Below are positions 4,907 through 51,386 of a stretch of DNA of 64,000 bases, piece by piece (the stretch's first letter is position 1; the number at the start of each line of letters is the position of its first letter). A program made the translations under genes and the position numbers. The DNA is from a virus: positions 36,747 to 100,746 of the IMG/VR virus record IMGVR_UViG_3300023184_000062. The stretch is one strand, 5' to 3'. The notes under the pieces were generated by a model, which was not told the origin of the DNA, searched no databases, and saw only the letters and a list, made by a program, of their open reading frames with translations.

Positions 4907-5269
4907 ATGGCTAAACTAACATTGTTTCCGGGACTAGATGAAAGGGGTCGCCGCTTAGGCGAGATTCGTATCCCTACACATACCATGGAAGCATTGGATG
5001 ATTATTTTCTCAGGGGGTATGAACCCGGAAGATTTATTGTAAGCATACTTACTAACAATTTGTATGGTGCTGTGACTAGTGCGGATCTTGCCAATCGTCA
5101 TGCTATCTATGAGATAGTTAAATGGTTAACTACTGATCCAATAGTCCCCATACATAGTTGGGGTACCAAAGATCATGTATCTAATTGGTTGAGTGACACT
5201 GGTGGTATCAGGACTAAGTTTGTAGAGAAGATTGAAAAAGAATATATTTGGAAAACACTGAAAGATTAA
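4907..5269 (+). CDS. Conserved phage hypothetical protein
   Basis: Y...G..PG.F...IL.NNL..A...AD..N pattern. Confidence 0.7.
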   Translation: MAKLTLFPGLDERGRRLGEIRIPTHTMEALDDYFLRGYEPGRFIVSILTNNLYGAVTSADLANRHAIYEIVKWLTTDPIVPIHSWGTKDHVSNWLSDTGGIRTKFVEKIEKEYIWKTLKD

Positions 5270-5270
5270 T

Positions 5271-5621
5271 ATGGCAGGCTGGAATACAATTCAACAAGTT
5301 CGTAAACTAGAAGAACGAGCGGATAGTCTTGGCATGCGGTTTACTCCATACAAGCATGATGATATGTATGGTGAGAATGTAGCATTAGTGCCAAAAGATA
5401 AAGACGCATTGCCTATCTACAGCCGTGATGCTATATTATTTGCTGGCTCATTAGAACATGCCGACAGGTTTATGCAAGGTGTGTTATGGGCACGAGAATA
5501 CGACCGTATGGCCATTGATCGGAACCTTGACAAAAAGCGTGAACGCAAAGAACAAGATGAACGCAATAAGCAAATGGTTAAAATCTTAAAAGAAGAAAAA
5601 CTAAGTTTAGTACAGACATAA
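5271..5621 (+). CDS. Hypothetical protein
   Basis: Operonic ORF. Confidence 0.7.
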   Translation: MAGWNTIQQVRKLEERADSLGMRFTPYKHDDMYGENVALVPKDKDALPIYSRDAILFAGSLEHADRFMQGVLWAREYDRMAIDRNLDKKRERKEQDERNKQMVKILKEEKLSLVQT

Positions 5622-38499: not shown

Positions 38500-38520
38500 C
38501 AATACGCATAAATACATATT

Positions 38521-39075
38521 ATGCGTGACATTATTACATTGCTTGAGGAAAAGAGTAAGCCTCAAGACATAGAAATTATACCCCTAAACTTCACCCCGGC
38601 TGAGGTTAGCCCCGTATTATCCAAAGATACACTAGATTTACATTACGGGAAATTAGCCCACGGTTACGCTGAACGCTACAACAACAAAGAGGGTGATAGA
38701 GATTTCAACTATGCAGGTGCTTTCCTGCATAACACATTATTCCCGCAGTTCCGTGAAGTAAGAAACAACAACAAGCCCAACGGCCCTATGTACGGGTTCA
38801 TCAATAAACACTTTAGCGACTATGACAACATGAAGTCTGAGTTTGAGACTGAGGCTATGAAGATACAGGGCAGCGGTTGGATATACTTGGCAACGGACGG
38901 GAAGATAAAGATAATACATAATCATCAAGTACGCAATGACATATTGTTGTTGATTGACTGGTGGGAACATGCGTTTTTATTAGATTACGGCAGTGATAAA
39001 AAGAAATACATCAAAGAACAGTGGAAGATCATTAATTGGAATGTTATTAACACTAGATGGGGAAAGAGTTTATAA
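38521..39075 (+). CDS. Fe/Mn superoxide dismutase with a CTS-like N-terminus
   Basis: LHYGK, FLHN, QGSGW, DWWEHA; MRDIITLLEE; TAAATA 6 nt before ATG. Confidence 0.9.
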   Translation: MRDIITLLEEKSKPQDIEIIPLNFTPAEVSPVLSKDTLDLHYGKLAHGYAERYNNKEGDRDFNYAGAFLHNTLFPQFREVRNNNKPNGPMYGFINKHFSDYDNMKSEFETEAMKIQGSGWIYLATDGKIKIIHNHQVRNDILLLIDWWEHAFLLDYGSDKKKYIKEQWKIINWNVINTRWGKSL

Positions 39076-39976: not shown

Positions 39977-40768
39977 ATGAGAGCAAAAGAATTTTTAACT
40001 GAATTATTTCAAAGCCATAGCGGCTATGAAATAAATTCAGTGCCGTATGGTGATACAGTACAGAACGGACAGCTTAAATATGTCTTTGTTACCGATCCTG
40101 ATGATAAAAATGAATATGGACGTCAAGGTGAAGTAGTAATCAAACAAATCAAAGATGCCAATGTAGATTTAATCTTTGTAGAGTTTAACATTGAAGGCAG
40201 CACTGATACATCAGGGCTAGGTGATCAATTCAAAATTTTAGGTGCGGTGGTAAAAGCAGTTAATAGATATTGTAGAATATACAAGCCCAAATACATTGTG
40301 TTTGAAACAGAGGATCCTAAAAAGTTAAGCATGTACAAAGCAATGGTGCGTAGACAAGTATTTCCGGGATATCAAACTATTGTACAAAGTTTGGATGATT
40401 ACAATAAACTTATAGCAACTGACAAGGAACTTACTAATCAAATTGGACCTAGACTTGCCGGGTTTGCTGATGAGATGGTGATGTTACAAAGAACAGAAGG
40501 TGCTGATAATATAAAACCACCAGAAGTAAAAGGCCAGTATGTAATTTATGGCCTGAACAAATATAGAGGTAAAGTATTTCATAGATTAGATGCACCGTCA
40601 CAAGATAAAGCACTACAGTTTGCCCGTGAATGGATAGAACAAAACTCAGCGAGATTGGGCGAACGTTGGGGGCTTGACAGAGGTAGACACTGGGACCTAG
40701 CAAAAGATACACATGGTGAGTTTGCCCCTGCCCCTGCAGGTCAATATTCAGTAGTTGGACAAACCTAA
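39977..40768 (+). CDS. Putative capsid-targeted internal protein
   Basis: MRAKEFLTE N-terminus resembles the T4 CTS; coupled to the next gene. Confidence 0.6.
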   Translation: MRAKEFLTELFQSHSGYEINSVPYGDTVQNGQLKYVFVTDPDDKNEYGRQGEVVIKQIKDANVDLIFVEFNIEGSTDTSGLGDQFKILGAVVKAVNRYCRIYKPKYIVFETEDPKKLSMYKAMVRRQVFPGYQTIVQSLDDYNKLIATDKELTNQIGPRLAGFADEMVMLQRTEGADNIKPPEVKGQYVIYGLNKYRGKVFHRLDAPSQDKALQFAREWIEQNSARLGERWGLDRGRHWDLAKDTHGEFAPAPAGQYSVVGQT

Positions 40769-42960
40769 TGAGAGCAAGTGAATTCACTAACTTTACTTAT
40801 AAAACTGAACCATACGAAGGTTGGAATGGTGACGGGTTAGTTGTTCGTGCTTATGATGGTAGCAATGAAGTTGGTCATGTTATTTTTGAACCCACAGAAG
40901 ATGATAATACACAATGGTATGCTGTTGATGTTGAAGTAGAAGAACCTTATCAACGCAAAGGTATTGCTAGTAAAATGTATGACATTGCTAAAAAAGCAGC
41001 AACACAACAGGGTGCTATCATAGTAAAAAGTCATACACAAACTGATGCTGGTCGTGGCTTATGGCAAGATAAACTAGTTTGGGAAGCAGAAGCAAACAAG
41101 ACTACATTGAACAACATGTACGGCGGACATTTCCCTGACCGTGATGAAGAATTTTGGGACTATGTTACTCCTCGTGAACTTGGGCAAGCATTGACAGTTG
41201 AAACAATGCCTAAGCACAAAGTGTTGATTATATTACTCAGTCAATATCGTGCGGAACACATTGATGATATAACTGATATGCTTGATGATGACCAACAAGA
41301 GATTGTTCAATCATATGTTAATGATCCAGCACTATCAAGCAAAACAATAGTTGTTGCTAATAACAAAATTATTGACGGGAATCATCGTGCATTGGCAGCA
41401 GCGATTAAAGGTGTTCCTATCAATTATGTTAATTTAGCAGAATTAGATGAAGAACCGATAGATGAATCTACTAACGATGCTGCGAAATCCTGGATTGAAA
41501 AAGTCTATTCCAAATATCCACACACCATGCAGAACAATCATGTTATGGTCTGGGGTGAAGGTGATGAACAACAGTTTGCTATGTTTGAATTAACACCTAG
41601 TTTTAGCAAGCGCGGTGCAGTAGAAGTCAAGTGGTTTCAAGCATATCCATTACGTCAAGGCGTTGGCAGTCGTGCTATGAAAGAATTACAGGCATTAGCC
41701 CGTGAAGATGGCATTACACTAACATTGTTTCCTTGGGACAAGGGTCAAGTAAGTCAGGCTAAACTAACGAAGTTTTACAAAGGGCAAGGCTTTACTCCAA
41801 CTGTTAAAGGCGGTAAGGCTATGTCATGGGCGCCTGAATTAAACGAAGAACTTAGAGTTGATGTGCCCAATGAAGAATGGTTGCAAGACGCAATTGACTA
41901 TGCTAAAAGTAAAAGTCCCGATCGTTACGGCTTACCCTACATGGGCAAAACTACTGCCACCGTTAGGAATATTGACGTTCCACTACGTATATTAAGACGA
42001 ATACCAGGTATGCGTCAAGAGCAATCAAAGATACGACACCACGATCTTGCTGCTATTAGAAAAATAATGAGTACCACTGGTAAACTACCACTACACGGAC
42101 ATACTGGACAAGAATATAAACCTTTTATTAATGTAGCATACGATGGCAGTGCCTGGGTCAATGAAGGTAATCATAGGATCATGGCCGCGGCTGAACTTGG
42201 ATGGGAGTCATTACCAGTAGAGATTTCATATTTTGATGGTGGTGAAAGAATTAAAGATGGGCCCATGTATCCTGGACGTATTGGATTGGGAGCGCCACCT
42301 TTAGATGAAGCAGAAGTAGGCACAACAAATGCCAAAACAATTGCTAATCAATTAAAAGCAGCTGGTTATTCAAATGTAGGTACAGGTGCTGATTCTACTG
42401 TATGGGCCAAGGATGATAGTCATATCATTAAGATATTGATGCCAGAAGATTTGGGCACTAAAGCAGAACAAGTATTTCGTAAGTTTTATGAATTTGCTAT
42501 GTCACATCAAGATTTAGAATGTATGCCAAGATTTAATGAGGTAAACACAGTTGATATTAATGGTAAAGATTATACACAGATTGAGATGGAAAGATTAGCA
42601 CCCATAGAAAAAGGCACTTTCATGGAAGGTGTTATTTGGTTCTTTAGTGATTTTTGTCAAGCACGAGAGTCATGGGATAAAGTAGACCATGCTATGGGAT
42701 TATCAGATACTTGGGAATGGTATCCGTATGCTAAGAGTTCAAAGTCTATTGCTAATGTTTATGTTAGACAATGGCAAGATTTAATGTATGATAAAAAATC
42801 ATACTCCATGTACAGACAGCTATATAATGTAATGAAGTTATTATATATCACAGGTACAATTAACAAATTCGGATGGGATTTGCATACGGCAAATGTCATG
42901 CAACGAAGTAACGGTCAACCAGTAATTATTGACCCGTGGTTTAGCGAAGGAACATCATAA
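40768..42960 (+). CDS. Polyvalent protein: GNAT - ParB/Srx - GNAT - ParB/Srx - protein kinase-like
   Basis: [11 protein letters not shown]; IIDGNHR; [10 protein letters not shown]...FY...GF; VNEGNHR; [23 protein letters not shown]. Confidence 0.85.
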
Positions 42961-43291: not shown

Positions 43292-43332
43292 GATTTAGTC
43301 CTTATTGATAAATACATAATAAGGATTAAATC
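43292..43332 (+). promoter_or_regulatory. Late promoter in the loop of a 15-bp SD-sequestering hairpin
   Basis: GATTTAGTCCTTATT-gaTAAATAcat-AATAAGGATTAAATC immediately before ATG 43333. Confidence 0.85.
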
Positions 43333-48303: not shown

Positions 48304-49149
48304 ATGAAACAAGACCCAAGTACAATAATTGATATAGAACAGGATCCTGGCTTACATCGTATACCTTTCGTTCAAAAAGTAACTAAGGCTATACCGTCAT
48401 TTAGTATCCCTAAATATCATTGGGTCAAAGATAAAATAGATACAAGAGATCATCCATATCAACTAACAAATCAAACACAATCTAATGTTGTTGACTTAAG
48501 AGAATATTGCTCACCAATAGAAGACCAAGGCAATTTAGGTAGCTGTACAGGTAATGCTATAGCAGGTGCAATAGAATTACTACACAAAAGACAAAATAGG
48601 ACACTTGACATAAGCCGCTTGTTCATATACTACTATGAAAGATTATTAATTGGTACAGTGAATTATGATAGTGGTGCATACATACGTGATGGCATCAAAG
48701 CATGTTATACATATGGTGCTCCAACAGAAAACTTATGGCCATACAATATAAGTAAGTTTAGAACTGCTCCATCAAAAACAGCATTGACTGATGCGGCAAA
48801 AAGAAAAGTTACATCATATCAAAGAGCAGCGGACTTTAACGCAGTAATAGATGCTATCACTAGTGGATATCCAGTTACAATTGGGTTTAGTGTATATTCA
48901 AGTTTTGATACTAAAACAGTAGCAAAAACAGGTATTATGCCATATCCTAATGTCAACAAAGAAAGATTATTGGGCGGACATGCTGTACTATTAGTTGGCT
49001 ACAACAAAAACAATAACACATTCATAGCTAGAAACAGTTGGGGAACAAATTGGGGTGACAACGGTTACTTCTATATGCCCTTTCAAGTAATAAAAAACAA
49101 TACAATGAGTGGTGATTTTTGGGTTATAAAATCAATCAGTAATCCTTAA
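48304..49149 (+). CDS. Papain-like cysteine protease (C1A)
   Basis: DQG.LGSCTG.A, GGHAV..VGY, RNSWG..WGD.GYF; late leaderless start. Confidence 0.92.
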   Translation: MKQDPSTIIDIEQDPGLHRIPFVQKVTKAIPSFSIPKYHWVKDKIDTRDHPYQLTNQTQSNVVDLREYCSPIEDQGNLGSCTGNAIAGAIELLHKRQNRTLDISRLFIYYYERLLIGTVNYDSGAYIRDGIKACYTYGAPTENLWPYNISKFRTAPSKTALTDAAKRKVTSYQRAADFNAVIDAITSGYPVTIGFSVYSSFDTKTVAKTGIMPYPNVNKERLLGGHAVLLVGYNKNNNTFIARNSWGTNWGDNGYFYMPFQVIKNNTMSGDFWVIKSISNP

Positions 49150-50255: not shown

Positions 50256-51386
50256 ATGAATAACAAATTTAGATTCCATATACTAGGTTTACCGCATACG
50301 GTTACAAGCAAAGAATACAATGCGTGTGCTTACACGCAGAAGGTTGTCAAATTTGGCAAGATGATGAAGGCCCGTGGCCATACAATCATTCACTATGGAC
50401 ATGAAGATAGCGATTTAGTTTGCGATGAACATGTAACCGTAATCACAAATGAAGATTGGAAAATTGCTTACGGCGATTATGATTGGCGTAAAAACTTTTT
50501 CAAATTCAGCACAGATGACCATGCTTATCAAACATTCTTTGCTAATGCTATAAGAGAAGTTGGAAAACGCAAACAAAAGAACGACTTCATATTACCCTTC
50601 TGGGGTAGTGGTGTAAGACCAATCTGTGATGCACATCCAGATATGATTACAGTAGAACCAGGCATTGGTTATGCAGGTGGTCATTGGGCACGTTGGAAGA
50701 TATTTGAAAGTTACGCTATCTATCACGCTTACTATGGACTAGATGCAGTTGGTACTTGTAAATCAGATTGGTATGATGCTGTTATACCAAACTACTTTGA
50801 TCCAGATGACTTTGACTTCAAAGAAGAAAAACAAGATTACTTCTTGTTCTTGGGAAGAGTATACAATGGTAAAGGTATTCATGTAGCAATACAAGCAACA
50901 GAAGCGATTGGTGCTAAACTAATCATTGCAGGACAGAATCCAGAGAACTTAGAATTTCCTCCTCACGTAGAGTTTGCAGGTTACGCTGATGTAGCTAAAC
51001 GCAAAGAGTTAATGAGTAACGCTAAAGCTGCATTCGTTCCATCAATGTATGTTGAACCGTTTGGTGGCGTACAAATTGAAATGTTAATGAGTGGCACACC
51101 TACAATCACAACTGACTGGGGTAGTTTCACAGAGAACAATGTTCATGGATACACTGGATATCGTTGTCATACATTTGATCAGTTTGTGTGGGCAGCAAAA
51201 AACATTCATAACATTGATCCAAAGAATTGCAGAAAGTTTGCTGAAAACTTTACACTAGAACGTGTTGCACCTATGTATGAAGAATACTTTCAAATGGTAT
51301 TAGATGTACATGAAGGCAAAGGATGGTATCAAATGCATGAGGACAGAACAAATATGAATTGGTTAAAGAAAGACTTACCAACATGA
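50256..51386 (+). CDS. Glycosyltransferase (GT4/GT-B)
   Basis: FLGR...KG, EPFGGV.IE...SGTP.I. Confidence 0.9.

Follow-up and report, generated by a model that had tools for sequence, protein, structure and literature searches.

A five-module phage protein with linkers ending in aliphatic-x-Glu, a candidate capsid-cargo polyprotein of a T4-like phage

A stretch of 64,000 nucleotides of viral DNA (hereafter the window; bases 36747-100746 of a 100,746-bp IMG/VR virus record, the full record being G000) contains on its plus strand, at 40768-42960, a reading frame that starts with ATG, is open to its stop codon and encodes a protein of 730 amino acids (P0001). Our analysis revealed that P0001 is a chain of five modules joined by acidic linkers, which are short and disordered and have (L/I/V)-x-Glu as their last residues. 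As judged from homologous sequences, it is precisely at these linkers that modules have been gained, lost, reordered or split in related phages. The record is 29% complete according to CheckV, and a whole genome of about 350 kb is therefore expected. We consider it fairly probable, with considerable room for doubt, that P0001 is a capsid-cargo polyprotein of a T4-like phage of this size, packed into the head, cut at its joints and injected. Capsid-targeted internal proteins processed by gp21 in T4, polyvalent proteins and multi-site cleavage after Glu in phiKZ-like phages are already known. The protease-punctuated multi-enzyme chain is the new element, as full-text literature searches yielded no published account of multi-enzyme chains punctuated by prohead-protease sites behind a capsid-targeting sequence (CTS).

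Analysis of the individual modules, all on the plus strand, gave secure domain calls for three of them. Module 1 (aa 1-106; 40768-41085) is a GNAT acetyltransferase with the acetyl-CoA motif YQRKGIAS. The Pfam family PF00583 matches aa 14-93 (E 8e-12) and QRKGIA fits the acetyl-CoA-binding Q/R-x-x-G-x-G/A motif of GNATs; the high-scoring segment pairs of homologs on this module end at query residues q106-108. Module 4 (aa 361-514; 41848-42309) has the ParB/Srx fold and the motif WVNEGNHR, in which EGNHR represents the GxxR-type nucleotide-binding motif of this fold. It was modelled separately by AF2 from alignment A2, and Foldseek ranks 1-30 of this model were all occupied by Srx, KorB, Noc, ParB, PadC, SbnI or the serine kinase SerK. 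VIA-align, which is independent of Foldseek, matched sulfiredoxin with Z 7.3 (top Z values 7.3, 6.3 and 6.2), and nearly all of its 12 matches with Z of at least 2 have the ParB/Srx fold. Comparison of the module 4 profile with PDB sequences gave noise only (E ~1). Module 5 (aa 515-730 plus the stop codon; 42310-42960) is protein-kinase-like and carries an IIDP motif. Its residues 521-723 match PHROG 15752, the T7 gp0.7-type kinase, with E 1.2e-8, and when scanned alone it matches Kinase-PolyVal (PF18762) at E 0.029, with 14.8 bits against a cut-off of 27.

Module 3 (aa 234-360; 41467-41847) contains the motif RQGVGS and is probably a GNAT as well; the Pfam GNAT match to this module scanned alone is sub-threshold (E 0.0035). 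Module 2 (aa 107-233; 41086-41466) contains the motif IIDGNHR and is tentatively ParB/Srx-like, with ESM Atlas structure matches to ParB_N clusters at template modelling scores of 0.5-0.59. A common (D/E)GNHR..AAA motif was found in modules 2 and 4, neither of which matched Pfam when scanned singly. Alignment A3 was left out because module 2 and module 3 sequences were mixed in it. A recent duplication of a GNAT-ParB unit was also considered and is unsupported: hhalign of module 2 against module 4 recovered only the 15-residue GNHR motif (probability 5%), and modules 1 and 3, compared by BLASTP, gave no significant match (E 0.45). AlphaFold predicted five folded units for the whole of P0001, with a mean predicted local distance difference test (pLDDT) score of 65.6. 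Foldseek with this whole model found GNATs and the protein kinases VRK1/2, PknB and FN3K, all at E of at least 1e-3 because the multi-domain model has a low predicted template modelling score. No peptidase family was found in Pfam or PHROG scans of P0001. The five-domain architecture put forward in an earlier note on this DNA thus holds for modules 1, 4 and 5 and probably for module 3, while its ParB/Srx assignment of module 2 stays tentative.

The same note described a 730-residue frame with four x-x-E junctions, and all of these tripeptides were found in place. Junction 1 is V-W-E↓A (aa 104-106; 41077-41085; the arrow marks the predicted cut) and is the weakest of the four; relatives carry an extra canonical site here (VWEQINE↓SKTTL). 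Junction 2 (41443-41466) has two canonical sites, L-D-E (aa 226-228) and I-D-E (aa 231-233; 41458-41466), followed by E and S at P1' (LDE↓EPIDE↓S); in alignments it falls opposite the ends of two leaders, LNE↓D in P0011 and LIE↓S in P0014. Junction 3 is L-N-E↓E (aa 358-360; 41839-41847) and junction 4 is L-D-E↓A (aa 512-514; 42301-42309). The segments of the AF2 model with pLDDT below 50 are residues 88-155, 220-232, 341-376 and 504-518, and these coincide, in this order, with the four junctions. The concern that the sites might fall inside folded domains is thereby answered, all four lying in low-confidence linkers. The four linkers account for about 7% of the length of P0001 yet hold six of its nine [LIV]xE tripeptides, more than chance would place there.

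Relatives of P0001 were collected by a word-indexed search (472 relatives) and by an exhaustive HMMER search (1,161 cluster representatives at E <= 0.001); leader counts were taken over 256 retrieved relatives. BLASTP mapping revealed that homologs match P0001 at very high identity but over parts only. The breakpoints of 120 homologs pile up at q108/110, 234-239, 356-360 and 507-515, so that homology breaks at the x-x-E sites, as the earlier note had anticipated. In P0004, q1-108 is fused gaplessly to q357-730; P0003 consists of a leader and q110-236 followed by q358-730; P0010 consists of modules 1, 2 and 5. Other partner modules in the family are Glyco_hydro_19, DUF6934, zeta-toxin/AAA and ParBc. 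Module 3 is the commonest module of the family (140 retrieved proteins). Modules standing alone behind a leader were found for module 3 (P0243, 148 aa), module 4 (P0145, 158 aa) and module 5 (P0186, P0195), and modules 2-5 each occur as first module behind an MRAxEF leader, module 2 in P0002 and P0003 (MRAKEFINE↓SKTTL). Module 1 alone was not found among the relatives retrieved. The expectation of standalone modules behind such leaders was therefore borne out for modules 3-5 and, as far as first position is concerned, for module 2, but not for module 1. The idea of exchangeable units bounded by Glu agrees with the exchange seen at the joints; the VWE of junction 1 is a weak site.

Analysis of the ends of the modules revealed that the linker with its Glu is present only where another module follows. 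Proteins ending in module 4 stop at ...KIGL(A), and those ending in module 3 stop at ...W-x-P-x, without a linker. Full leaders, Met included, were found inside P0161 (..NNMRANEFITE↓AEG, aa ~281-291) and P0197 (..DVMRATEFITE↓VT, aa ~309-319); each of these proteins is the frozen product of a fusion between adjacent leader genes. In related loci, up to six leader genes stand back to back in tandem arrays with overlapping stop and start codons (for example L005 4060-10565). The linker Q-G-V-A-E↓G is repeated at many unrelated joints of the family (for example P0140, P0150 and P0236). Many tiny reading frames of 54-71 aa with a full MRAxEF leader occur at L007, L008, L029, L030, L037, L052 and L053 and may encode small internal peptides.

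Comparison of the junctions among relatives revealed which positions are conserved. Upstream of module 4, in 57 distinct contexts, Glu occupies P1 in 47 and L/V/I occupies P3 in 47. The 58 contexts upstream of module 5 show Glu at P1 in 57 cases, V/I/L at P3 in 54 and Ala at P1' likewise in 54. Over both modules the frequencies are 82-98% for Glu at P1 and 84-93% for L/V/I at P3, against a LIVMF background of 25%; the contexts are phylogenetically related, so these counts overstate their independence. The remaining positions P2 (A/E/D/N/T) and P4-P8 are free to vary, and one of S, G, A, E or N stands at P1'. The phage T4 protease gp21 cleaves after L/I-X-E (PMC9026906), and the junction logo fits this published rule, widened to Val. 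Furthermore, the Glu that ends a leader and the Glu of an internal junction stand at an equal offset from the module. This was found for module 4 (leader MRAQEFINE↓GKLSVDVPNE; internal ...PELNE↓ELRVDVPNE and ...QGVAE↓GLRVDVPNE), module 5 (...VIE↓AETNT and ...PLDE↓AEVGT), module 3 (FLIE↓SNDAAK and PIDE↓STNDAAK) and module 2 (FINE↓SKTTL and HLMKE↓DGGNSTTL).

The family leader has the nine-residue consensus MRAxEF(I/L/V)xE. An MRAxEF start was found in 144 of the 256 relatives and a looser form in 189, with unrelated modules behind it. The T4 CTS is MKTYQEFIAE (PMC8442874), and the family leader resembles it in keeping the E-F-(I)-x-E core, which is a resemblance only. The first 10 residues of T4 IPIII are enough to package a protein, even a foreign one; residues 4 and 7 of the CTS serve targeting and residues 8 and 10 serve processing, and with Asp at position 10 processing is blocked while targeting persists (PMC9026906). 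The leader of P0001 itself, MRASEFTNF (40768-40794, plus strand), is the targeting-like half of the family leader, with the Glu at position 9 replaced by Phe. This Glu is carried by nearly all other family members, including relatives that start with other modules. The likeness to the T4 CTS that had been noted for the N-terminus of P0001 is thus retained for MRASEF and fails at the processing Glu. By comparison with the T4 Asp-10 mutant, P0001 may be targeted but not trimmed.

Analysis of the leader codons suggested that selection acts on the peptide and may act at a second level as well. All of TTA, ATC, ATT, ATA, CTA, GTT and GTC are used at codon 7; codons 5, 6 and 9 show ordinary codon bias while their residues E, F and E are invariant; and the 20 nt before the leader hold a purine-rich Shine-Dalgarno region and are otherwise unconserved. 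From these three observations we conclude that the peptide itself is conserved. Codons 2 and 3, in contrast, are nearly fixed over 70 leaders in related loci, AGA in 66 (94%, against 27% genome-wide) and GCA in 60 (86%, against 45%); in the window these two codons are found at 40771-40776 and 39980-39985. A nearly invariant ATG AGA GCA start, together with late-promoter-like motifs 2-8 nt from several start codons of this genome, would be expected if the leader were mainly a translation signal at the mRNA level, serving tightly coupled or nearly leaderless late messages and not sorting. We regard this explanation as very unlikely, since it does not account for invariant E, F and E residues at codons of ordinary bias, for a position 7 kept in chemistry only, for a peptide that resembles the T4 CTS residue for residue, or for a Glu offset common to internal junctions, where nothing initiates.

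The proposed cutting of P0001 in the head depends on a gp21-type protease in this lineage. Five long IMG/VR relatives, found via the P0001 protein, were searched for head genes. Both Peptidase_S77 (gp21-type; E 1e-25 to 3e-29) and gp23 (E ~1e-100) were found in four of the five, namely G001-G003 (95-99% complete, 340-345 kb) and G004. A protease of the gp21 type, which the earlier reading required, is accordingly present in relatives, among them all three that are 95-99% complete, and was not found in the 29%-complete record itself. The record and G002 have 62 common reading frames with a mean identity of 52%, in partly collinear blocks. G002, in which the gp21 homolog lies at 195584-196210, has the gene order of T4 (portal / acidic core protein / protease / scaffold / capsid protein), and its capsid protein has the propeptide sites LLE↓G, ILE↓N and LKE↓N. 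In this 345-kb genome the gp23 homolog (C1:193248-194465, minus strand; L069, L081) is split by one in-frame TAA into reading frames of 301 and 89 aa; faulty assembly, a genuine break and an insertion that escaped recognition are possible causes. The T4 gp23 and gp21 of the relatives and the bacterial-style gene overlaps led us to reject a giant eukaryotic virus as the source. Searches for cultured relatives by megablast and tblastn, with the gene and the protein against 50,697 phage records, gave no match, and the 263-aa gene upstream of P0001 likewise had none.

A second explanation accepts that the polyprotein is cut but assigns the cutting to another protease, either the C1 peptidase encoded at 48304-49149 or a host enzyme, or places it outside the head, with products that act in the producing cell. 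The Peptidase_C1 (papain-family) gene (Pfam E 4e-19) lies 5 kb downstream of the P0001 gene and belongs, like it, to a co-directional cluster of late-looking genes. The specificity of papain-type enzymes is mainly for a hydrophobic residue at P2, whereas P2 of the junctions is variable (A/E/D/N/T). The logo with its aliphatic P3, Glu at P1 and small P1' is that of the published gp21 rule, and the same Glu ends a CTS-like leader, which is sensible only for head targeting. Processing by non-prohead peptidases has been proposed for polyvalent proteins (PMC5512222), which would favour this explanation; we nevertheless hold it to be highly improbable.

Several observations weigh against the reading of P0001 as packaged and cleaved cargo. 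The P0001 leader, with T-N-F at positions 7-9, is without the position-9 Glu, and so are all proteins that start with module 1. The (L/I/V)xE motif is short, and three copies lie inside folded domains (aa 39, 57 and 464). Junction 1 is V-W-E, non-canonical with Val at P3, and its P1 residue is three residues off the leader-Glu position of P0002. A search of the 100-kb record (29% complete) found no gp21, gp23, other head gene or nucleocytoplasmic large DNA virus capsid gene, and a protease gene was seen only in relatives, whose identity is about 52%. The fixation of leader codons 2 and 3 beyond codon bias hints at an additional constraint at the DNA or mRNA level. The phylogenetic relatedness of the junction contexts counts here too, and packaging and cleavage are predictions for P0001 and its close homologs.

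Some of these observations would also be expected if P0001 were an uncut cytoplasmic enzyme of the polyvalent type, its leader and linkers being scars of leader-gene fusion and linker recombination. Fossil leaders do occur inside proteins, and tandem leader genes with overlapping stop and start codons would ease fusion; the missing cleavage Glu in the P0001 leader, the genome fragment without a protease gene and the leader codons 2-3 fixed at the DNA level point the same way. Scars, however, should decay, yet P3 is kept as L/V/I at 84-93% and P1 as Glu at 82-98% while P2 and P4-P8 drift. Position 7 of the leader is kept hydrophobic through many different codons. The 20 nt before the leader are unconserved, which argues against a DNA cassette, the linker is cleanly gone where no module follows, and the conserved motif is the specificity of a protease that the lineage encodes. 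We judge uncut, scarred enzymes to be unlikely, and all three alternative explanations are weakened by the position-specific conservation pattern.

The P0001 gene overlaps both of its neighbours: its ATG shares bases with the stop codon of the 263-aa gene before it (TAATG), and its own stop codon with the start of a 108-aa IscA-like gene. The upstream 263-aa gene (39977-40768, plus strand) is translationally coupled, has the full leader MRAKEFLTE followed by a DUF6934-like module, and is assigned to the same putative cargo locus. In other phages the DUF6934-like module occurs as a fusion with module 3 (P0042, P0102, P0107 and P0116), and this type of gene also comes first in the tandem leader-gene arrays at L005, L006 and L011. 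A T4-late-promoter-like CATAAATA at 38507-38514 (plus strand), a consensus match only, stands 6 nt before a superoxide dismutase (SOD)-like gene. It heads the co-directional run SOD / 293 aa / 263 aa / polyprotein / IscA-like, a position that we count in favour of the cargo reading; a motif of this kind is next met at 43307.

Analysis of promoter-like motifs revealed no enrichment of the exact T4 late promoter TATAAATA in the window (three found against 10 expected). The looser NATAAATA occurs 2-8 nt before the ATG of reading frames at window positions 5617, 16284, 26537, 35803 and 38507 (plus strand) and 63816 (minus strand), and further copies stand close before an ATG at 5070 and 34645 of the full record. 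In the record, 14 of 29 copies of ATAAATA are within 60 nt of a start codon. From its placement beside start codons, NATAAATA is suggestive of a T4-late-promoter-like signal, and transcripts from promoters of this type would be leaderless or almost leaderless.

The Fe/Mn SOD-like gene (window 38521-39075) has a leader-like start, MRDIITLLEE. Pseudomonas phage PA5oct and Vibrio phage 2.275.O (349 kb) carry homologs of it. The PA5oct homolog starts MNDSIKKYISIAE↓A (N-terminus ...YISIAE↓A) and is flagged as detected by electrospray ionization tandem mass spectrometry. This flag is weak support, because the PA5oct list of 93 products so detected also holds some enzymes that its authors termed virion-unrelated. 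PA5oct has been reported as related to the RaK2/GAP32/121Q jumbo phages (bioRxiv 10.1101/406421), and the SOD-like homologs suggest that the phage of P0001 has an affinity to this group. Further downstream, the Peptidase_C1 gene is preceded by a gene for a 1286-aa protein without family match. A group-1 glycosyltransferase (window 50256-51386) has 76% protein identity to those of Synechococcus phages S-CAM7 and ACG-2014f; genes may have been exchanged with cyanophages, or the host may be a cyanobacterium.

Comparison with known systems revealed both likenesses and differences. In T4, IPI, IPII, IPIII and Alt likewise have a short N-terminal tag on otherwise unrelated, fast-evolving accessory proteins. 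This tag ends in hydrophobic-x-Glu according to the gp21 rule, and the genes of the internal proteins lie in hypervariable tandem loci; the present lineage also encodes gp21- and gp23-type proteins. T4 Alt shows that a large enzyme can be packaged and cut at more than one L/I-x-E site, namely at ITE-6 and LTE-619 (PMC5694885). Unlike the chains described here, T4 cargo proteins are single units in which one or two cuts remove propeptides. In the present family, up to five or more enzymes occur per chain, with a site at every joint, and units are exchanged there. In addition, the family leader is one residue shorter than the T4 CTS and lacks the processing Glu in P0001.

The polyvalent proteins (Iyer et al. 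2017, PMC5512222) similarly unite several unrelated effector enzymes in one phage polypeptide predicted to travel with the DNA. Their repertoire overlaps with that of P0001 (ParB, a dedicated kinase family and acetyltransferases), and their domain mosaicism is extensive. With five modules of three fold types, P0001 has at least the two distinct enzyme domains by which polyvalent proteins are recognised. However, polyvalent proteins are proposed to be processed by a metallopeptidase domain of their own, which is frequent though not obligatory, whereas P0001 is without a peptidase domain. Its joints instead carry a predicted site for a trans-acting prohead protease, it has a T4-type N-terminal tag, and its Kinase-PolyVal match (E 0.029) is far below threshold.

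In the giant phages phiKZ, 201phi2-1 and SPN3US, many inner-body and ejection proteins are packaged and processed by S80 proteases. The cuts follow the Glu of a three-residue motif, frequently more than once in a protein, and paralogs share conserved N-termini. In those phages, which are an unrelated lineage, the motif is S/A/G-x-E and not aliphatic-x-E, propeptides exceed 100 residues, and the cuts mainly remove propeptides rather than part enzymes. The kinase of T7, gp0.7, whose PHROG is matched by module 5, fits host shut-off at the very start of infection. It differs in being the product of an early gene expressed after entry, whereas the kinase described here would arrive ready-made; identity between the two is low.

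Taken as a route, the proposed use of P0001 would run as follows. Late in infection, the leader would act as a T4-like CTS and dock the protein on the scaffolding core. Once the shell is assembled, a gp21-type prohead protease would cut after each junction Glu. The freed enzymes would remain in the head and then enter the host with the DNA, active before phage gene expression, where they would phosphorylate and acetylate host proteins and act as ParB-type NTPases or nucleases. All of this is inferred, from head targeting through cutting by the prohead protease to retention, injection and a role in host takeover or counter-defence, and the 'host-takeover or anti-defence' role, taken from the domain types, is a guess. 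With the protease set to part the modules in any case, joining or splitting adjacent leader genes would make almost no difference to selection, and this near-neutrality would explain the rampant shuffling of modules.

Whether P0001 belongs to a general plug-in cargo system in giant T4-like phages of lakes and seas is, in our estimation, evenly balanced. In such a system the tag, or an aliphatic-x-Glu joint to a preceding module, would be enough for any enzyme behind it to be taken into the prohead, set free by the head protease and injected, and genes and domains would be shuffled at protease sites, as cutting would make fusion and fission selectively neutral. If so, the leader and the aliphatic-x-Glu joints would predict which ready-made enzymes are delivered by uncultured giant phages. 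The injected proteome would become readable from sequence, here two acetyltransferases, two ParB-type enzymes and one kinase; such delivered enzymes are otherwise visible only through virion proteomics of cultured phages. The viral polyprotein strategy would then extend to tailed phages, using the capsid maturation protease, and the neutrality of fusion and fission would give a mechanistic reason for the extreme modular shuffling at these loci. The leader might also serve to load foreign proteins into capsids other than that of T4. The payload itself suggests that host proteins or nucleic acids would be modified within seconds of DNA entry, which bears on takeover and counter-defence.

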